A stretch of 64,000 nt of DNA from Escherichia phage FL20: the sequence record PP400781. The stretch is one strand, 5' to 3'. The notes under the pieces were generated by a model, which made no database searches, was not told the origin of the DNA, and saw nothing but the letters and a program-made list of their open reading frames with translations. Made by a program: the position numbers and the translations under genes. Below, piece after piece: positions 54,345 to 64,000 of the stretch (position 1 is its first letter; each line of letters begins with the position of its first letter).

Positions 54345-54910
54345 TCATCCTCTTTTTGGAAAATTTAAATAAGCATACTCGCCAACTCTTTCATGTGCTG
54401 CACGGTCATAAGCCTTAGCCGCCTCAACTTCTGTCTCAAAGTATCCTAGATGTATATTCTTTCGATTGATAACAATATACGCCTTCCACGGCTTTTTCTT
54501 GCTTGTTGATAATGATACACCTTTATATTTGCTATGACAAGCCTTTTTCTTTGAGACGTTAAACTGATTTTGCTGTTCTGTTGCTTCTCTCATGTTTGAC
54601 GGTCTATTGTTAGTTTTGTCTTGGTCTATGTGATCTATTAGTTCAACCTGAGTACCATACTCTAAAAACCAGACAACTCTATGTACAAATAGATTAAGTT
54701 TATGACCATTGTTATAAAATGTAAAGTATAAATATCCTTCTTTATGGAGACGTTACCCTTACCACATCACCTTTTTTGTATCTGGACCCTTCTTTTCGGA
54801 ATCCAGCAGCTACAGAATCCTTTAAATGGTATAATATTCCATCAACATGATAAAATCTACCTTTTATCGCTTTCTGTGTCTCGATATCCCAAAATTTTGT
54901 TTTTGCCACA
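54345..54910 (-). pseudogene. degraded HNH-AP2 homing endonuclease (paralog of 50799..51395)
   Basis: AP2 part intact from internal Met (YKGVSL...KPWKAYIVINRKNIHLGYF); HNH motif HRVVW...IDHIDQDKTNNRPSN in frame but without start; N-terminal part in another frame. Confidence 0.55.
54727..54734 (+). promoter_or_regulatory. T4-type late promoter TATAAATA
   Basis: Exact TATAAATA 227 nt upstream of gene 34, inside the endonuclease remnant. Confidence 0.35.
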
Positions 54911-54960
54911 ACAACACCTCACACAATAAATAATTTCATATTATAACAGGAGACCCAATA

Positions 54961-57900
54961 ATGGCAGATTTTTCTCAACATTTCAAGGCCACATTTGGCT
55001 TTGACGCTGGTAATGAAAAGGTCGTCAATGTAGCATACGCAGATAAAAACACATCAACGGATGCGGTCAACGTTGAATTTTTCAATTACCATAATGGTAT
55101 TACTCAGTATGACACAACTCGCGGTTATGATCAATACGGAACTACAATCTATCAAAACCGTCCATATTATGCAAAAGAAGATATCACAAAGCCAGCAGGT
55201 GATTTTGACCCGACTAAATGGCAAGCACTGCGCACGGACCCACGTTGGGATTATGTTGCAGCCACTTCCGGTGATACTCCTTTAAAGTCTGGTGATTATA
55301 TCGCAGCAGATGGTCAATTTGCAAACTTGACTTTCTCTATGCCAACTAAACCAGCAGAGGGAGACACTATAACAGTAAAAGATATCGGTGGCAAGTGTGG
55401 TGTTAACGAATTATCGTTCTTGAGTTCAGGACACGAGTTTTACCATAACGGTAATGTGTATAACCGAAAATGGTATTGCACTACCCCGTATGCAATGAAC
55501 TATTTCATCTTTGTTCGGAATCGTTGGCATGTTTATCAGACGGGAACAGAGCCGCGCGGTGTGTACGCACAGCCAGCGATTGATGCTATTCAAATGCAGA
55601 ATGGTGATCAGGTATTTCGTCGTAGTTCGTTGGGTAATATTACCTTAGTGCTTCCTAAGTTTGCCAACAATGGCGACATGATCCAGACTACAGACCTTGA
55701 CGGATTAACCGCAACCAACCACGTTACGGTTAAAGTTCATGAGCACGCAGAAGAACAATCAATTGGCACGTCCGGTCTAAAAGAGATTATCGGTAAGCGT
55801 AGCGGTCATGGTGTATTCATCTTTGACAAGACGGAAAACTTATGGCGTTTGTGGGATGATGATCAGTCTGTTCGTCTTAACCCGATCATCAATGACACTC
55901 GCTTGCAACCTAATAGCTATGTTGCTGTATTTGGTGGTCGTGATGTTACTCTGACGCTGCCGACCAATGTCGAGCCGGGTGATCGTATTCAAGTTTCTAT
56001 GCAGTATATGCACGGAAACCAGACTTGCCGAATCATTACCTCAGAAGAGGATACAAAAATCCTTATGCAGAAAAACATGGTTCAGTTTCCTAAGCGTAGC
56101 GAGTACCCATTCAATGGGACCGATACATGGACTGGAGTGTCTGAATTGTCTTTCAACGCTGCAAATGATTATGTACCTTATCTGGAGTTCTCTTATTCAG
56201 AAGGTGATGATGGTAAGAAATACTGGTTGGTGGCACATGCTCACCCGATTGTAGAACGAGTAGATCCGACTCGTAAAGATCGTGTTGGTGTAATTGCACT
56301 GGCTACCCAGGATGAAACAAACAAAAACCATGAAGATAATCCTAGCGACGAAGTTGCGGTGACTCCAAAGGTTCTGGCTAACAAAACAGCCAACGAAACT
56401 CGACGCGGTATTGCTCGCATTGCGACTCAAGCGGAAACGCATCAAGATACTGGTTCCAACTTCCTGGATGATGTTATCGTTACGCCTAAAAAGTTAAATG
56501 ACTGTGTTGCTACCGAAGCCCGTCGTGGTGTGATGGAAATTGCAACCCAGCACGAAACCAATGAAGGTTTAGACGATACCCGCGCTATTACTCCTAAGAA
56601 ATTAGAAGAACGTCGCGCTTCCGAAGATCTCGCTGGTATTGCTGAAATTGTTCAGGTTGGCGGTAGTGCTGCCGCTCGACGTGGCGAAGCTGGTACAGGG
56701 ATCTATAACATCAACGACCATGCTAAAATTGTTACGCCACAAAACATCAACGAAGTCAAGGCGACCGAAACTTCCCGTGGTGTTGGCTATCTGGCAACTG
56801 ACGCGGAAGTGCAAGGGGCTACAGAATCAACCCCGCAAGATGCTTTACTAATCACGACTCGCACGCTAACGAAACGTACTGCTACCGAATCTCGCACTGG
56901 TATCGCTGAAATTGCAACTCAGGAAGAAACAAACTTAGGTCAAAGTGATAACCATATCATCACGCCTAAAAAGCTGCATACTCGCCGCGCAACGGAAACT
57001 TTACACGGTTTAGCAGAAATTGCAACTCAGTCGGAATTTGACGCAGGTCTTGACGATGCTCGCATTTCTACCCCATTGAAGATTAAAACCTTCTTTGAGA
57101 ATGCACAGCGTTTGAAAGTAGATCCGACTCAGGGGCTTAACCTTACTGGTGATTTGTGGCAAGGTATCATGATCAGCGGTCTGGATGCAACCGAAGACAC
57201 AAAAGGTGTCTCTAAAGTTGCTACTACTCAGCTTACGGATGCTGGTCAAGATGATACTACAATCATCACTCCTAAAAAGCTGCAAGGCAAAAAGGCCACC
57301 GAAGGTAAAGAAGGTATTATCCGAGTTGGTACTCAAGCCGAAACCGTGGCTGGTATTATGGACAATGTAGCAATTTCTCCGAAGAACTTCAAATATGTTG
57401 TTCAGACAGAGGATACATGGAAAGCAACCGAAGCGCGTCGTGGATTCTTGAAAGTTGCTACTCAGGAAAACTGTTTTGTTGGTGATAATCTGCAAGGTTC
57501 TACTCAAGAACTAGGAAACTACCAGCATGACGGAATTGCTGTTACCCCTAAAGGATTAAACTACGCACTTGCTAATTTCTTACCTAAGATGGCAACCGCT
57601 CAGAATAGTTTGAAATTGGGTAACGTAGAGGCCGCTAAATGGGCGCGTAGAGACGTTGACCAGACCATTGAGAGCAATTACACGTTTAATAAAAAAGTTA
57701 ACGTGAAGGGCGATTTAGAGTGCTTAAAATCTGGTTCCTTTGAAACTCTGTCTGTGACTAAGAACTCAACCGATGATCCGAGTAATGGTCATCTGGTGTT
57801 GGGTGAGCGTGGAGTTGACGGTCACACCGGAATTACTCTGCATGGCACAACCGCATCGGAAGGCATGGAAAACTCATGGTCTATTATCGTTGGTGGCACT

Positions 57901-58701
57901 GGAACATCTCAAGTTGTTGATAGTAATGCTATCGCTTTCGGTAAAATCAATGATGGTGGAGTCGTCGAGCATTACGCCTTTGCTATGGAACACAATGGCG
58001 ACGCGACAGCATATAGAGACTTTATTGCAGGTCGTAACCTGTATGCGAAACAAGGCGGTTTATACATTGTTGACCAGTCTAATCCGGCAATGACTCGTTC
58101 CCCAGATGGTATGCTGAATATCGGTCACGGTGGAAGTGTTAACATCAAGGCAGGTCATCAAACGTTAACTACAGAGATCGCCGGACAGAAATATCAGATC
58201 GTCCACGCAGGAAACGCAGACGAAGTTCTTAACCGTCAGTTTGTTAAGAATGCTGGCGATACAATGGTCGGTAAGCTGACTATGGATAATGCGCCTATTG
58301 TTTCTGTTAAGCATGAAGCTAGCGCGGCAACCGCTCCGGCAATCAGCAACATCGGTTTCTGGAATATGCGCGTTACTACCCAGAACATCAAAGAAACTTA
58401 TCCAGAGAAGAAAAACGGTACTCTGATGCAATGGGGTACTGACGCGGACGGGCTTACCCAGCTTTGGTCCCCCGATGGTACTCATAAACATTATATCCGT
58501 TCCGGTACTGGTGGTCAATGGACCGCATGGGGTGAAATTTACACCAAACAGAATAAGCCTACCGCTCAGGAAATCGGGGCAGTAGTTGCAGAAGGTGGTT
58601 TAATGAACTCTATGACGGTTCGTGACTGGATCAAAGTTGGTAATGTTAAAATCATCGCCAATAATCTGACTCGTACCGTAGACTTTATCTGGGAAGACTA
58701 A
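54961..58701 (+). CDS. 34: long tail fibre proximal subunit gp34
   Basis: 1246 aa; about nine ~36-aa repeats of type ATExRRGIAEIATQxET; position after rnh. Confidence 0.9.
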   Translation: MADFSQHFKATFGFDAGNEKVVNVAYADKNTSTDAVNVEFFNYHNGITQYDTTRGYDQYGTTIYQNRPYYAKEDITKPAGDFDPTKWQALRTDPRWDYVAATSGDTPLKSGDYIAADGQFANLTFSMPTKPAEGDTITVKDIGGKCGVNELSFLSSGHEFYHNGNVYNRKWYCTTPYAMNYFIFVRNRWHVYQTGTEPRGVYAQPAIDAIQMQNGDQVFRRSSLGNITLVLPKFANNGDMIQTTDLDGLTATNHVTVKVHEHAEEQSIGTSGLKEIIGKRSGHGVFIFDKTENLWRLWDDDQSVRLNPIINDTRLQPNSYVAVFGGRDVTLTLPTNVEPGDRIQVSMQYMHGNQTCRIITSEEDTKILMQKNMVQFPKRSEYPFNGTDTWTGVSELSFNAANDYVPYLEFSYSEGDDGKKYWLVAHAHPIVERVDPTRKDRVGVIALATQDETNKNHEDNPSDEVAVTPKVLANKTANETRRGIARIATQAETHQDTGSNFLDDVIVTPKKLNDCVATEARRGVMEIATQHETNEGLDDTRAITPKKLEERRASEDLAGIAEIVQVGGSAAARRGEAGTGIYNINDHAKIVTPQNINEVKATETSRGVGYLATDAEVQGATESTPQDALLITTRTLTKRTATESRTGIAEIATQEETNLGQSDNHIITPKKLHTRRATETLHGLAEIATQSEFDAGLDDARISTPLKIKTFFENAQRLKVDPTQGLNLTGDLWQGIMISGLDATEDTKGVSKVATTQLTDAGQDDTTIITPKKLQGKKATEGKEGIIRVGTQAETVAGIMDNVAISPKNFKYVVQTEDTWKATEARRGFLKVATQENCFVGDNLQGSTQELGNYQHDGIAVTPKGLNYALANFLPKMATAQNSLKLGNVEAAKWARRDVDQTIESNYTFNKKVNVKGDLECLKSGSFETLSVTKNSTDDPSNGHLVLGERGVDGHTGITLHGTTASEGMENSWSIIVGGTGTSQVVDSNAIAFGKINDGGVVEHYAFAMEHNGDATAYRDFIAGRNLYAKQGGLYIVDQSNPAMTRSPDGMLNIGHGGSVNIKAGHQTLTTEIAGQKYQIVHAGNADEVLNRQFVKNAGDTMVGKLTMDNAPIVSVKHEASAATAPAISNIGFWNMRVTTQNIKETYPEKKNGTLMQWGTDADGLTQLWSPDGTHKHYIRSGTGGQWTAWGEIYTKQNKPTAQEIGAVVAEGGLMNSMTVRDWIKVGNVKIIANNLTRTVDFIWED

Positions 58702-58735: not shown

Positions 58736-59875
58736 ATGACACAAGAGATAGAATTACGCAACACTGGAATTAGGTTTGCGCATTTCGACGAAGACTCTGC
58801 GACATTTACCAACATTTCAGAAAATAACTCTGTGATGTATAAGCTGGAAGTGCGCGGATCTAATGCGGATTCTACCAAACCAGCAAGAATTAGATTTAAT
58901 GGAGTGGAGATCGTCGGGACTGGCTATGAGACTGGCCTAAACTTTAAAGTTTTTACTCCAACTGGACAATTGCACGAAGAAAAGGTATTCTATGGTCGTG
59001 GTGCTGTATTGGGAATGCGTGATTATCTTTATTTGCTAAAAGGCGACTATATCATTGCGATGGCAACGCATGGAGAATTGTTTGCAGATCCGATAAGTGA
59101 TGATATATTTTCTAAGCTGGGATCTGTATCATTCCCGAATCACATTTTGTTACAGCAAATGCCTCGTGTATCCTATGCAGCAATTTATTCGACTAAAATG
59201 GGCAAAATTGTGTGCGAAGGGATGCAAGCAACGCACGGAGAAGGTCAAGATTCGTCTATACAGATCGAGAAAGTTTATGATACTATAGACGATCTTGCAA
59301 TAACAGGAACACCACAACGATTTTTAGATTATCCGGTTGAATATGTTAGCGAAGATGCCGAACATTTCGAGCTAATACAATGGCCTCATGATGAGATCAG
59401 CGCACCACTTGAATATTTTAACATAAAGGCAGGTGACAAACTATCAATATCCTTTGAATTGTTCCGTGATAGTGCCGCAGCCGCAGCCAACGTAACAGCG
59501 CGTTTCTATCACAACTACTTCACCGATGGACAATATCAAACTGGTGTTCGATACAATGCCAGCAAAAAAGACCAATGGGAAAAGTTTGAAGCCGTCTATA
59601 CCGTACCGGAAGGAGTTGATAGTGTTGCCACTGGTTGTATCAGATATCCAACCAACTCAAATGAAGGTATTGTTAAAATTAGAAACATACTAATAACGCC
59701 GATCAGTGGAGTCGTCAAAACTACTGGTCCGACTTCATTTGGTGTTAATGGTGTTAGAACAACTCATATTCAGGATAACGGTGATTTTACTAACCCTGTA
59801 ATGAGTCTTCTTAAACTGCCTAGAGATAATAAACACATCACATCCAACAACTTTAAAGAGTTCGATGTTGATTAA
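58736..59875 (+). CDS. 35: long tail fibre hinge connector gp35
   Basis: 379 aa; synteny 34-35-36. Confidence 0.75.
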   Translation: MTQEIELRNTGIRFAHFDEDSATFTNISENNSVMYKLEVRGSNADSTKPARIRFNGVEIVGTGYETGLNFKVFTPTGQLHEEKVFYGRGAVLGMRDYLYLLKGDYIIAMATHGELFADPISDDIFSKLGSVSFPNHILLQQMPRVSYAAIYSTKMGKIVCEGMQATHGEGQDSSIQIEKVYDTIDDLAITGTPQRFLDYPVEYVSEDAEHFELIQWPHDEISAPLEYFNIKAGDKLSISFELFRDSAAAAANVTARFYHNYFTDGQYQTGVRYNASKKDQWEKFEAVYTVPEGVDSVATGCIRYPTNSNEGIVKIRNILITPISGVVKTTGPTSFGVNGVRTTHIQDNGDFTNPVMSLLKLPRDNKHITSNNFKEFDVD

Positions 59876-59886
59876 CATTTTTAACA

Positions 59887-59917
59887 AGCCGATCCTCGGG
59901 GTCGGCTTTATTTTTAT
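59887..59917 (+). terminator. rho-independent terminator after gene 35
   Basis: AGCCGACCccgaGGATCGGCT hairpin followed by TTATTTTTAT. Confidence 0.7.
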
Positions 59918-60036
59918 ACAGTTGGTTAAAACATAACCAAAACGAAGAAAGATCTTTAGAATAATAGAAAATTTGTTTCGGTTAAAAAATAGTCAGTGCC
60001 TACGGCACGTCGCGAAGCGATATTTTGTTAACATTC

Positions 60037-60044
60037 TATAAATA
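60037..60044 (+). promoter_or_regulatory. T4-type late promoter TATAAATA (gene 36)
   Basis: Exact TATAAATA 34 nt upstream of gene 36 ATG. Confidence 0.65.
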
Positions 60045-60077
60045 CTCGGAACTATAACTAATTTTTGAGGTTACTTT

Positions 60078-61568
60078 ATGGCAGATTTGAAACATGGATC
60101 TACTGTAGGCGGATCTCCCATTTGGACGCAAGGAAACTTGACGATCCAGCCAGCGGGGGATCAGCTTTTCTACAAAGGTCATAAAATCTATACCGCTTTT
60201 GATAAACCTTCGGCTGCCGATTTTGATGCTGTTAGTGCTAAAGACGGTGGCACATTTCAAAAGCAAGTTCATTTCGAGGAAGGTTTAAGCGTAGGTAGCG
60301 CATCGGCTGGAGAAACCAAAAAGAACGGGATCTTTAAAGGAAATAGTGATGCGGCTAACTTTGATGGTGTAAGTTGGGGTTTGCATTCGTGGAAATCTAT
60401 TGGTTTTGTTAATGCTCGTGATGATGTTATCATGGCTTATATTGACACTACCACAGGTGATTTTAAAACTAAAGGGACTATCGAAGGGACAACCATTAAA
60501 GACACAGGTCAACGCGTCTATAGCCCTGTTAATAAACCAACGAATAATGATTTAGATTTGGTGTCTCGTCGCGGTGATACCCTCACAGGAACATATAATT
60601 TAAACACGGTCACTGTTAAACTATCGGTTGATTCGAAATTAATTGCAAGGGAACGTGATTTAATTAATTTTGATGCGACTAAGATCTATTATGGTAACGT
60701 TCTTGATACGTTGGTCTTCCGAAGTAAAGATGAGCCTACCATTTTTGTTAATGGCAGAGAAGGTCGTTTTTATCACACCAACAATAAACCAACTAAAGCC
60801 GATGTTGGGCTAGGCAATGTCACCAATGATGCACAGGTTAAACGTGCTGGTGACATTATGGAAGGTAACTTGCAAGCGCCTAGAATGTTGGCGACAAACG
60901 ATCCTGCTGGTCCTAATGAATTGGTTCGTTTGAGCTACTTTGAGAGAAAATCAATGGTAGCAAATCCAACCATCATTGGAAACGTTGATTGGAACACTCT
61001 TATTAATCGCGGTATCTATCGTGTGGAAAATGCTGGGTCAGGTACTAATAAACCGTCTGATAGCTATTATAACGGCGTTTTGATGGTATATCGCCCAGAA
61101 GATGCGGTCGGTACTCGTCGAATTGTTCAGGTGTATTATCCTGAATCTATTGACCATCCGATGTGCTGGCGTTCGTGTTCTAATGAATCATGGACTGCAT
61201 GGAACTATGTAGATCACCGTAAATTGGCTGATATTCGCTATGTTAACGTAACTGGCGATACCATGACAGGACCGTTAACTGTTCCGGCTGCAAACGGTGT
61301 TAGAACAGCTAGAGGTGCATATAATGGTGATAACTACTATGCTGGACTTAATAGCTTAAATGGTACAGCAATGATTCATCGTGTTAGCGATATTAAAGCG
61401 CACGAGAAACTAGGAATCACACATGATTCTAAAATTATTTTCGTTAAATCTCGTGGCAATACTCAGGACACCGATACCTTTGAATTATACCACGAAGGAC
61501 ATAAACCAACTCCTGATGAGGTTGGCGCGGTTCCGCTCAATGCGGTAATTGATTTTGGTACTTTCTAA
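60078..61568 (+). CDS. 36: long tail fibre distal connector gp36 (extended form)
   Basis: N-terminus MADLKHGSTVGGSPIWTQGN..PAGD..YKGHKIY matches T4 gp36; 496 aa, much longer than T4 gp36. Confidence 0.75.
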   Translation: MADLKHGSTVGGSPIWTQGNLTIQPAGDQLFYKGHKIYTAFDKPSAADFDAVSAKDGGTFQKQVHFEEGLSVGSASAGETKKNGIFKGNSDAANFDGVSWGLHSWKSIGFVNARDDVIMAYIDTTTGDFKTKGTIEGTTIKDTGQRVYSPVNKPTNNDLDLVSRRGDTLTGTYNLNTVTVKLSVDSKLIARERDLINFDATKIYYGNVLDTLVFRSKDEPTIFVNGREGRFYHTNNKPTKADVGLGNVTNDAQVKRAGDIMEGNLQAPRMLATNDPAGPNELVRLSYFERKSMVANPTIIGNVDWNTLINRGIYRVENAGSGTNKPSDSYYNGVLMVYRPEDAVGTRRIVQVYYPESIDHPMCWRSCSNESWTAWNYVDHRKLADIRYVNVTGDTMTGPLTVPAANGVRTARGAYNGDNYYAGLNSLNGTAMIHRVSDIKAHEKLGITHDSKIIFVKSRGNTQDTDTFELYHEGHKPTPDEVGAVPLNAVIDFGTF

Positions 61569-61572
61569 TATT

Positions 61573-61596
61573 AGCGGGGATTCTCCCCGCTTTTCT
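61573..61596 (+). terminator. terminator-like hairpin after gene 36
   Basis: AGCGGGGAttcTCCCCGCT followed by TTTTCT. Confidence 0.55.
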
Positions 61597-61636: not shown

Positions 61637-64000
61637 ATGGCAGATTTAAACAGAATCCAGTTTAAACGCACTAGCGCAGCCGGACGTAAACCGGATGCTG
61701 GTACGATGAATCCGGGAGAGTTGGCAATTAACTTAGCAGACCAATATCTGCTTACAAAAAATGATGATGGGCAAATTGTTAATTTAAGCTGCCCTCCTGT
61801 TTATGATAAAGGCTTTAATGTAAACGGTCGTGTTGTTGTAGATGACCTTGTGTGGAGTAATACCGCAAACTATTTCGATGATCCGACCGCACGAAATCTT
61901 GATAAATTTGGGGCGTTTCGTACTAATGATATGGATGGTCATCTAGCATTGGCTTTGCATATTCCCCATCCTAGCGGTATAAATCATGCTCGTGGGTTGG
62001 ATTTTACTTATGGTTCTAACGTTGTTCCTACTGTAAAAACCTATGGTTATAACGCTGATGGTGTATTGGCATATTCATATCGCATGTATCACGAAGGTGA
62101 TAAGCCTAGTCCGTCAGAATTGAATGTGTACAGCAAACAAGAAGTAGATCGGATGTTCCAGAAGACCATCAACTTTGGTGTAGAAACTGGTTGGTTTAAA
62201 ATTGCTACCGCCTTTATTCCGCAAAATTATGGACGTAGCTTGAAAATTAGATTGATTGGTGGAAATGGGTGGAACGTAGGACAAACTGGACAATGTAATA
62301 TTATTGAACTTGTTATAAGGACTAGCAACGGTTCGCCTAAAGGAATTAACTTTGTTGCGTATCATCATGTTTCTGGTTACGAAAATCAATTTTGTGCCAT
62401 TAATACAGGTGATGACACTTATGATATCTATGCATATTACTTCGAATTTACTAATATGGTAATGGCCGAATATCAAGCGTCCAGCGATGTTAATTTAACT
62501 GTACTTGATCGACCTGAATATGTAGGCGATAAACCTGTAGCTGACCATATCTATGATGCATATACAATACACTCCTTTAACAGTTTCAGTAACCGTGGAA
62601 CGTTAAATTTTGCTGGAAACCATCAAGGCCAATATGACATTGAGCATTTGAACGAACAACAAACAAATGCTAAGAAAATGTTGCGTCGCTTCCGTAGTTC
62701 TGCTCCTGCCACTATCTGGCACGAAAGTGTTGATGACCAAAATTATCGTCTTGCTACTGGATATACCGATGTAACCCAACAATTATTGCTTTCGGCTGTA
62801 ACCGGTTTGCATATTCGTAGATTGACCATCGATGGTGGCTTAGGTTCCGGTTCTAATGCTGGTATTGATATTCGTCGAGGACCAAACGAAGCAAGCCATT
62901 TTAATTTTATGGATTATCGCACTGGTCAAGATGTTCGTAATGGTTGGTTTGGTTTTGGTGATTTGACGACCAAAGATTTTATTTGGTGGAACGATAACGG
63001 TCAAAACTCGATAAACTTGATTGAAAACGGTGAATTACATATTACTGGCGGTAAAGGCCAGAAAATTGTAATGAATAGCGAAGTTGCATTATCTGAAAAT
63101 GCTCGTTTGGCTGTTAAAGGTGGCAATTATGGCTTAATTTTTAGAAATGATGGTACTGGTTTCCATATACTGACTACCGATTTAAAAGATTCTTTTGGTA
63201 ATTGGAATAATCGTAGACCATTCAGCTATGATTTTGCGGACGGTGGATTATATTTAGGTGGCACTGAAACCGCTCGGTGTTTGCATCTGGGAATTGATGG
63301 TAGCACTCGTCTTGAAGACAACCTGTTCTTTAAAGCTGGTTCTCGTCAGTCTATGGACTATATGGAACTCGTCCATTGGGGGGCAAGCAATACAGGTCGA
63401 AATAACGTTTTAAGTCTTCGTGACTCAAAAGGATTTTTCGCAGAATTTGAACGATTGGGTGATAATACCATTAAAAACACCTTCTTCGGAAGATTTAAAG
63501 TCAATGGTGATTCTAACGCTATTACCATTAATGCTCCTACTGATTCTGATGCTGTTTATGTGAAAGGTACTTGTAACGATGTAGATAACTGGTATATCGG
63601 TAAAGGTGGTGCTGGTAATGGATTAGTTTTTTGTAGTTATAGGTCTAATGCGGCTGTTCATCTCACAGATAATGGTGAGGTTTTATTAGCCCCACAAAAC
63701 ACCGCAATTGTTAACATAAATCGCGACCGTATACACATCAACGGAACACAGTGGGTGGCACACCAGTCAGGCGGCTGGGGTGACCAATGGGGATTAGAAG
63801 CGCCGATATTTGTCGATTATAATTATGTTTCACCGGACTGTTATTATCCGATTATCAAAGGAAGAAGTTTAATCACCAATCAAGGGTATACAACTGCCGT
63901 CGATTTTGGTATGCGTCGTACCCCTAACAATTGGGGACAAGCAATTATTCGTGTTGGATCTGCGGAGAACTCGCCAGCGGCTGGTCATCCTCAAGCTGTA
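61637..64000 (+). CDS. 37: long tail fibre distal subunit gp37 (partial, continues past window end)
   Basis: N-terminus MADLNRIQFKRTSAAGRKPDAGTMNPGELAINL matches T4 gp37; first ~150 codons read without a stop, remainder not translated codon by codon. Confidence 0.8.
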   Translation, partial: MADLNRIQFKRTSAAGRKPDAGTMNPGELAINLADQYLLTKNDDGQIVNLSCPPVYDKGFNVNGRVVVDDLVWSNTANYFDDPTARNLDKFGAFRTNDMDGHLALALHIPHPSGINHARGLDFTYGSNVVPTVKTYGYNADGVLAYSYRMYHEGDKPSPSELNVYSKQEVDRMFQKTINFGVETGWFKIATAFIPQNYGRSLKIRLIGGNGWNVGQTGQCNIIELVIRTSNGSPKGINFVAYHHVSGYENQFCAINTGDDTYDIYAYYFEFTNMVMAEYQASSDVNLTVLDRPEYVGDKPVADHIYDAYTIHSFNSFSNRGTLNFAGNHQGQYDIEHLNEQQTNAKKMLRRFRSSAPATIWHESVDDQNYRLATGYTDVTQQLLLSAVTGLHIRRLTIDGGLGSGSNAGIDIRRGPNEASHFNFMDYRTGQDVRNGWFGFGDLTTKDFIWWNDNGQNSINLIENGELHITGGKGQKIVMNSEVALSENARLAVKGGNYGLIFRNDGTGFHILTTDLKDSFGNWNNRRPFSYDFADGGLYLGGTETARCLHLGIDGSTRLEDNLFFKAGSRQSMDYMELVHWGASNTGRNNVLSLRDSKGFFAEFERLGDNTIKNTFFGRFKVNGDSNAITINAPTDSDAVYVKGTCNDVDNWYIGKGGAGNGLVFCSYRSNAAVHLTDNGEVLLAPQNTAIVNINRDRIHINGTQWVAHQSGGWGDQWGLEAPIFVDYNYVSPDCYYPIIKGRSLITNQGYTTAVDFGMRRTPNNWGQAIIRVGSAENSPAAGHPQAV

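Follow-up and report, generated by a model that had tools for sequence, protein, structure and literature searches.

In phage T4, gp36 attaches by its N-terminus to gp35 and by its C-terminus to the start of gp37, and the domains D1-D2 that lie beside the knee are ascribed to gp36 (PMC9603124). The fibrous genes of the long tail fibre (LTF) have been described as swapping interchangeable motifs while the size of the locus stays similar (PMC3157838), and the RBPseg study lists the 'pyocin knob' as a mobile pseudo-domain found in several tail-fibre classes (PMC12143355). For RB49-like phages, the host-range mutants E230K and Y231S map to gp38, to which LTF specificity has been assigned (PMC9569957). 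Variants of gp38 likewise predict the Krischvirus receptor, which may be Tsx, OmpF or OmpA (PMC12032242), and an OmpC/gp38 pairing is reported for phage FJ63A (PMC12857141). None of the latter three papers mentions gp36, and our literature search found no domain-level description of this protein from Krischvirus. The gene itself is already known, having been deposited as gp36 in AY343333 and in dozens of later Krischvirus genomes.

Here we consider gene 36 of Escherichia phage FL20 within a 64,000-nucleotide stretch of record PP400781, hereafter the window. The window belongs to Krischvirus (RB49/JSE/kvi-like), and it carries a T4-type long tail fibre locus in the order 34-35-36-37, which is the same order as seen in JSE, RB49, kvi and T4. 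The features of this locus are as follows.

54961-58701: gene 34, encoding the proximal protein gp34, 1246 aa.
58736-59875, + strand: gene 35, encoding the knee-cap/hinge protein, 379 aa (phrog_1154, E=1.3e-124; synteny with JSE, RB49 and T4).
59886-59908, + strand: intrinsic-terminator-like hairpin 3' of gene 35, with a 10-bp stem and then a T-run (terminator scan).
60037-60044, + strand: TATAAATA, a putative T4-type late-promoter-like sequence 5' of gene 36 (read off the sequence).
60067-60070, + strand: GAGG ribosome-binding site, 8 nt ahead of the gene 36 ATG (read off the sequence).
60078-61568, + strand: gene 36, encoding the distal connector gp36, 496 aa plus stop (open reading frame list and translation).
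61574-61594, + strand: hairpin GCGGGGA-TTC-TCCCCGC plus TTTT, directly 3' of the gene 36 stop (read off the sequence).
61637-64000, + strand: gene 37, encoding the downstream partner of gp36; the first 788 aa are present and the gene runs off the window (translation).

The open reading frame of gene 36 is uninterrupted, and its closest relative at the nucleotide level is the gene of phage kvi, with 97.9% identity by megablast. The product matches phrog_16472, a PHROGs family of 496 positions, over 1-496 of 496. Upstream of the gene, TATAAATA corresponds to the T4 late-promoter consensus, and an Rfam search gave no match in the conserved 202-bp spacer. The hairpin at 61574-61594 was not flagged by the automatic terminator scan. 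With its promoter-like and terminator-like signals, its ribosome-binding site, its identical length in 58 genomes and a dN/dS of 0.12, gene 36 is a real gene. The partial gp37 of the window has Pfam matches to Gp34_trimer and gp37_trimer and is 90% identical to the gp37 of kvi, which comprises 922 aa with a Peptidase_S74 chaperone domain from aa 810. In kvi, gp37 is followed by the gp38 adhesin (PF05268, E=1.5e-69).

A megablast search with gene 36 returned 58 phage records with full-length cover and 80-98% nucleotide identity, all of them Krischvirus and including RB49, Phi1, JSE, kvi and GEC-3S. Every one of these 58 records encodes a collinear gp36 protein with 90-98% amino acid identity, and the protein alignment spans all 496 residues in 54 of them and residues 1-492 in the other four. 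In RB49 (AAQ15493.1), JSE (ACL78202.1) and kvi (QHR71596.1), the same 496-aa gene lies between genes 35 and 37, and differs from that of the window by point substitutions only (93-98% amino acid and 92-98% nucleotide identity). It is annotated in RB49 (AY343333), Phi1 and JSE as gp36, 'hinge connector of long tail fiber distal connector'. The names in use across records are 'glycoprotein', 'hypothetical protein', 'tail fiber protein' and 'hinge connector'. More distant relatives comprise metagenomic homologues of 492-508 aa with 50-65% identity, and collinear proteins in three Serratia phages with approximately 30% identity. Query cover of at least 80% was found in only 67 of the 1441 phage records with any gp36-like match. 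The long gp36 is thus universal within Krischvirus and a minority form among T4-like phages overall, so a length of this kind is routine in the genus (58/58) but not across T4-like phages. The discovery value is accordingly small: this is a genus-typical gene, and its domain dissection is a minor addition to annotation and not a new type of system.

The T4 counterpart is only 221 aa long (NC_000866, 155868-156533), and an initial annotation, made from the DNA letters of the window, was right to point out this difference in size. It was also right that the N-terminus resembles T4 gp36: BLASTP aligns aa 1-171 with T4 residues 1-184 at 39% identity (E=4e-32), and around 36 of the first 60 residues are identical when counted on this alignment. 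The Pfam family PF03903 (Phage_T4_gp36) matches aa 57-153 with 27.3 bits, which is marginal against the cut-off of 26. A second BLASTP segment pairs aa 251-294 with T4 residues 172-215 (34% identity, E=8e-6), and a third covers the short GDTMTG motif at aa 392-403. A MAFFT alignment of nine sequences, comprising eight long gp36 homologues plus T4, agrees with BLASTP and also aligns the C-terminal ends, ...IDFGTF here and ...QDFGYY in T4. None of the nine sequences, which cover Krischvirus, metagenomic homologues and T4, departs from D492, F493 and G494. As the C-terminal part of T4 gp36 aligns to aa 251-294 and to the DFG(T/Y)(F/Y) end, the surplus sequence consists of two internal insertions, aa 172-250 and aa ~296-488, and is not the simple C-terminal extension of ~275 aa that was at first proposed. 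The resulting domain map is given below.

60078-60590, + strand: T4-gp36-like N-terminal domain, aa 1-171, including the PF03903 match (BLASTP, Pfam).
60186-60224, + strand: first Y..(N/D/H)KP(S/T)..D motif, aa 37-49, IYTAFDKPSAADF (regex scan).
60516-60554, + strand: second such motif, aa 147-159 (regex scan).
60591-60827, + strand: insertion 1, a generic fibre repeat unit, aa 172-250 (gap in T4, MAFFT).
60768-60806, + strand: third motif, aa 231-243 (regex scan).
60828-60962, + strand: stretch homologous to T4 gp36 172-215, aa 251-295, GD(T/I)M.GNL.AP... (BLASTP, MAFFT).
60963-61223, + strand: pyocin-knob-like globular beta domain, aa 296-382, the first part of insertion 2.
61224-61541, + strand: second generic fibre repeat unit, aa 383-488, the second part of insertion 2.
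61485-61523, + strand: fourth motif, aa 470-482 (regex scan).
61542-61565, + strand: conserved C-terminal tail ...AVIDFGTF, aa 489-496 (MAFFT; same ending in Serratia phage 92A1).

By analogy with T4, aa 1-171 would be the end that binds gp35, and aa 489-496 would be the end that docks onto gp37. There is no variable position in the last eight residues among 14 sequences, and the stretch at aa 251-295 retains G258, D259, G263, A267, P268, P279 and R284 as invariant residues in the MAFFT alignment. The residue preceding the motif Tyr is I, V, F or L in all four copies of Y..(N/D/H)KP(S/T)..D, and a second motif, GD(T/I)(L/M).G, occurs three times in gp36, at aa 166, 258 and 393. Insertion 1 sits between the second and third Y..NKPT..D motifs, and the unit at aa 383-488 has the frame GDTMTGPLTVP ... 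LYHEGHKPTPDEVGA. The Y..NKPT..D and GD.M.G motifs bracket the modules and mark their boundaries. In proteins of the RB43/RB16 type, the first 49 aa of gp36 are joined straight to the equivalent of aa 230-265, which shows the motif acting as a junction between modules. A self-BLAST of gp36 found no long internal repeats, with only the short bracketing motifs recurring. The map presents a protein in which the ends are fixed and the middle accepts standard fibre modules, which is useful for tail-fibre engineering.

We also considered the composition of the additional sequence, which the initial annotation had called rich in Gly, Asn and Thr. This description suits Asn (8.9% of aa 172-496) and Thr (8.3%), but Gly makes up 8.0% of this region compared to 12.9% of the T4-like N-terminal part. 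Some 87 aa of the added sequence form a globular knob and are not shaft. A divergent tail fibre architecture can be spoken of in a limited sense only, as two repeat units and a knob that are additional to the T4 protein.

The wider distribution of the inserted modules was assessed by an exhaustive HMMER search in which aa 286-496 were run against 1.84 billion representatives at a threshold of E<=1e-3. This C-terminal region of 211 aa matches 390 representative proteins, which are mostly large and fibre-like, and those of 2000-5000 aa contain as many as 20 repeats of the GDTMTG region. A word-index search with aa 286-470 alone, which is limited by the index, gave 39 candidates and 2 near-identical fragments. 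The equivalents of aa 383-490 and, separately, of aa 146-266 form units of ~100-125 aa that run from GD.M.G to Y..KPT..D, and units of both kinds are strung in tandem in several giant fibre proteins. Units homologous to insertion 1 are found in the tail fibres of E. coli prophages and, as tandem arrays, within giant fibre proteins. When a profile was made of aa 383-490, it gave a weak match to the tail fibre protein S of phage Mu (5YVQ, E=3.4e-5). As these modules are shared, frequently in tandem arrays, by numerous fibres of unrelated phages and prophages, they probably reached gp36 by the kind of module shuffling that has been described for this locus.

The remaining inserted module carries the signature DWN..G.Y...N.P...G.L.V...Q.Y.P...R...W..W at aa 292-386, and stretches of this kind are present in other fibre proteins as single copies or as three to five tandem copies. 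A profile (A3) was built from 29 such segments and used with hmmsearch. It matches the knob regions of the R1 pyocin fibre 6CL5 (E=6.1e-6) and of the R2 pyocin fibres 6CT8 (1.8e-4) and 6CL6 (2.7e-4), with ~80-89 profile positions aligned. Because of these matches to R-pyocin knobs, we call aa ~296-382 a pyocin-knob-like domain, and it has the same fold as the pyocin knobs of Knob1/Knob2 type. E. coli prophage matches carry the name 'pyocin knob domain-containing', but these proteins align only to aa 129-269, and their names were rejected as evidence for a knob. They cover the junction motif and insertion 1 and not the knob, which was therefore tested independently. No Pfam or NCBIfam model detects the knob, and no Pfam family lies over it in ten carrier proteins either. 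With gp36 as the query, NCBIfam gave no match, and neither insertion 1 nor the C-terminal 114 aa had a Pfam match. A phmmer search of whole gp36 against PDB sequences produced no meaningful match, and hence no solved gp36 is detectable by sequence. The AF2 model of the full-length gp36 monomer was poor (pLDDT 42.6), and Foldseek hits obtained with it, to the C-terminal region of T4 gp34 and to the R1 pyocin fibre, are a hint only. Due to the poor quality of this model, the shaft modules are known from their sequence only.

To describe selection on the gene, six Krischvirus sequences were compared, from the window, JSE, RB49, MIZ4, phiS and kvi. Purifying selection acts on gp36: the whole gene has a mean pairwise dN/dS of 0.12 and the five computable regions have 0.05-0.13, dS being saturated at aa 383-488 for some pairs, and the knob itself gives 0.13. 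Among these phages, gp34, gp35 and gp36 do not vary in length (1246, 379 and 496 aa) and share 90-98% identity with the proteins of the window, while gp37 does vary, the extremes of its identity to that of the window being 42% in JSE and 93% in phiS (up to aa ~625) and its lengths 922-979 aa. The value of dN is 0.020 in the N-terminal domain, the lowest in the protein, compared to 0.05-0.10 in the inserted modules. This faster change of the inserted modules at the protein level counts against the overall explanation given below.

These data bear on receptor choice, as the initial annotation had taken the long gp36, together with the gp34 repeats, to signal a probable difference in receptor specificity. 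BLAST of gp36 against T4 gp37 found no significant similarity (best HSP E=0.26) and Pfam found no GP38 match in gp36. The protein has neither the gp37-tip or gp38 homology nor the distal location of a receptor-binding tip, its place being the knee end of the distal half-fibre. It is conserved at 90-98% where gp37 varies between 42 and 93%, and the published receptor genetics lie in gp38. We conclude that the host receptor is probably not selected by gp36, and that this choice most likely stays with gp37/gp38 at the tip of the fibre. The earlier reading, in which a long gp36 signals a change of receptor, is corrected accordingly.

Taken together, we consider it highly probable that gp36 is a T4-type connector that is normal for its genus, with fixed ends and with inserted fibre modules and a knob that most likely have a structural role. 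The ends important for assembly are kept: the T4-like N-terminal domain would attach to the gp35 knee-cap, and the ...DFGTF tail to the N-terminus of gp37, which is conserved. The middle of the protein holds acquired, interchangeable modules, namely the repeat units at aa 172-250 and aa 383-488 and the knob at aa 296-382. In this arrangement gp36 most likely just adds shaft, plus a bulge near the knee. The knobs of R-pyocin fibres are suspected of binding sugars (PMC11871291), and a purely structural role for gp36 is for this reason probable but not certain. A functional binding site at aa 296-382, whether an accessory contact to O-antigen/LPS or a docking point for whisker, tail or capsid on retraction, is an unlikely alternative in our assessment, even though the domain resembles the Knob2 region of R-pyocins. 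It would fit with a review that describes knob-like domains as frequent among fibres that bind saccharides and as possible participants in target binding (PMC11871291), and with the use of several O-antigens by RB49-like phages, which the authors found hard to explain by the small gp38 alone (PMC9569957). There is also a precedent in T4, where gp35 holds the whisker via a CBM-like domain (bioRxiv 10.64898/2026.03.06.709160). However, the dN/dS of the knob reflects purifying selection and not hypervariability, gp36 is 90-98% identical among phages with widely differing gp37 and gp38, the reported host-range mutations are all in gp38 (PMC9569957), and the knob lies around the length of a half-fibre from the tip. 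The more specific candidate role, a second site for low-affinity glycan binding or whisker docking that would aid fibre retraction or the unusual capacity of RB49-like phages to use several types of O-antigen, we rate as slightly less likely again. Were the knob to bind a glycan or the whisker, gp36 would be more than a passive connector.

The extra sequence could also be the N-terminal part of an ancestral gp37 that gp36 gained, either because the boundary between the genes moved or because the two genes fused and split again. Such a transfer would account for a mature gp37 that is shorter here (~809 aa, from kvi) than in T4 (1026 aa). It has parallels in RB43/RB16-type phages, in which the N-terminus of gp36 is fused to a long distal fibre protein, and in the yet more extreme split of 92A1 (982 + 513 aa). 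We nonetheless regard it as very improbable, as gp36 shows no significant similarity to T4 gp37, the gp37 of the window retains the conserved gp37 N-terminus, and gp36 keeps its own C-terminal tail with a T4 C-terminal segment between the insertions, a pattern that a simple boundary shift would not give. That the long open reading frame is an artefact, either a fusion arising from assembly or frameshift or a decaying pseudogene, has next to no probability, and the conservation data refute it: the length is identical in 58 independently sequenced genomes, metagenomic homologues at 50-65% identity have 492-508 aa, dN/dS is 0.05-0.13 in all five computable regions, and the gene has its own promoter-like and terminator-like signals.

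On the preferred reading, as a connector extended by inserted modules, the contribution of gp36 to the length of the fibre can be gauged by residue-count arithmetic, assuming that gp37 is cleaved at the S74 domain. In this lineage, 496 residues of gp36 and ~809 of gp37 (kvi, up to S74) give ~1305 residues per chain, which is close to 221 + 1026 = 1247 in T4 and to the 1246 of the proximal gp34 here. Going by these counts, the long gp36 would compensate for length in the shaft. The sums of gp36 and mature gp37 were looked at in five lineages, and such compensation fails for Yersinia phage TG1 (215 + 609 aa). Conservation of the gp37 N-terminus (~50 aa) extends across T4, Krischvirus, Serratia phage 92A1 and TG1. 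The gp36-gp37 joint is therefore conserved, and what differs is how much rod lies to each side. This variable share agrees with the published view that LTF genes swap motifs (PMC3157838).

Comparison with T4 gp36 places the protein within the same type. The two share the N-terminal ~170 aa, the GD.M.GNL.AP stretch, the DFG.(F/Y) end, synteny and a late promoter, so that homology, gene position and the conserved C-terminal end all agree with a T4-type gp36. The partners gp35 and gp37 are presumably as for the T4 protein, and gp36 would by the same analogy be a homotrimer on monomeric gp35 and trimeric gp37 (PMC9603124). At 496 aa, it is 2.2 times longer than T4 gp36, to which its insertions add a knob domain and two fibre repeat units, all absent in T4, and does not have the typical gp36 size of ~220 aa, which is a typical and not a functional feature. 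The knob resembles those of R-type pyocins (6CL5, 6CL6, 6CT8/6CU2) in profile and fold over ~85-100 residues, and has in common with them the signature DWN..G.Y...N.P...G.L.V...Q.Y...R...W..W, although sequence identity is only ~21-22%. In R-pyocins the knob is an in-line globular bead of a trimeric fibre, and the domain of gp36 would be such a bead too. The R-pyocin knobs adjoin the receptor-binding foot at the tip, whereas gp36 has one knob, near the knee of a composite fibre.

Two further lineages show other divisions of the distal rod. In Serratia phage 92A1, a 982-aa 'tail fiber protein' (WJZ28149.1) occupies the position of gene 36 and is collinear with aa 1-483 of gp36 (32% identity, E=3e-61), so that insertion 1, the knob and the second unit are all represented. 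It ends in ...LDFGTF, as gp36 does, but has ~500 further residues before this tail, and its gp37 is only 513 aa long, which indicates that the shares of the distal rod encoded by genes 36 and 37 are plastic. The distal fibre proteins of the RB43/RB16 type (~730-820 aa, annotated gp37) are 55-72% identical to gp36 in the first 49 aa and in the YH..NKPT..DVGLGNV...GD.M.G junction. They are without the PF03903 core, insertion 1 and the knob, and their N-terminal cap is fused directly to a long fibre ending in an S74 chaperone domain. In short, the distal rod is split differently among T4-like lineages, as 221 + 1026 aa in T4, 496 + ~920-980 aa in Krischvirus and 982 + 513 aa in 92A1.

Within Krischvirus, gp37 is a mosaic protein. 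Gene 37 is cut by the end of the window; the portion present (61637-64000) was compared with the corresponding comparison loci (L001 and L005-L008). The gp37 of kvi and MIZ4 is 90% and 81% identical to that of the window, respectively, and the phiS protein is 93% identical up to aa ~625 and unrelated beyond this point, while the JSE and RB49 proteins show just 42-45% identity. We also see that the gp37-gp38 region comes in two locus types among the Krischvirus genomes compared. In RB49 and JSE the small Dc5 ORF comes next after gp37, with gp38 situated elsewhere; in kvi, MIZ4 and phiS, the gp38 adhesin directly follows gp37. The window locus is probably of the kvi/MIZ4/phiS type, with a gp38 adhesin right after gp37.

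Nowhere among the phages compared has the distal rod been redistributed between genes 36 and 37 as far as in Serratia phage 92A1, where the gene 37 product comprises only 513 aa and its partner is as follows.

6001-8949 of L003 (the 92A1 locus): gene at the gene 36 position, 982 aa

The 496-aa gp36 itself bears inconsistent annotations among phage records: it is labelled 'glycoprotein' in the PHB13 record, and elsewhere 'hypothetical protein', 'tail connector protein', 'tail fiber protein' or 'long-tail fiber protein'.

Immediately 5' of gene 34, the window carries an extra ~569 bp (54357-54925), for which blastn found no counterpart in JSE, RB49, MIZ4, phiS or kvi. It carries the following ORF.

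54345..54593, minus strand: 82-aa ORF; AP2 DNA-binding domain match (PF00847; 32 bits, under the cut-off of 33.3; E=1.5e-7)

The insertion with its AP2 ORF may be left over from a mobile element or one of the homing-endonuclease type.

In gp35 (58736-59875), aa 67-134 give a weak Pfam match to ILEI (E=0.002, 19 bits, under cut-off), which agrees with the ILEI/PANDER-like domain recently reported in the T4 gp35 knee-cap (bioRxiv 10.64898/2026.03.06.709160). Downstream lies the gene 35-36 spacer, with two small neighbouring hairpins.

59876-60077: gene 35-36 spacer, 202 bp
59996-60008 and 60009-60021: hairpin pair within the spacer

Both the predicted gene 35 terminator and the putative late promoter are located inside this spacer, which gave zero family matches in Rfam. 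Across five Krischvirus genomes its identity is 96.5-99.5%, higher than that of gene 36 (~92% at the nucleotide level for most relatives). The equivalent spacer in T4 is only 62 bp long.
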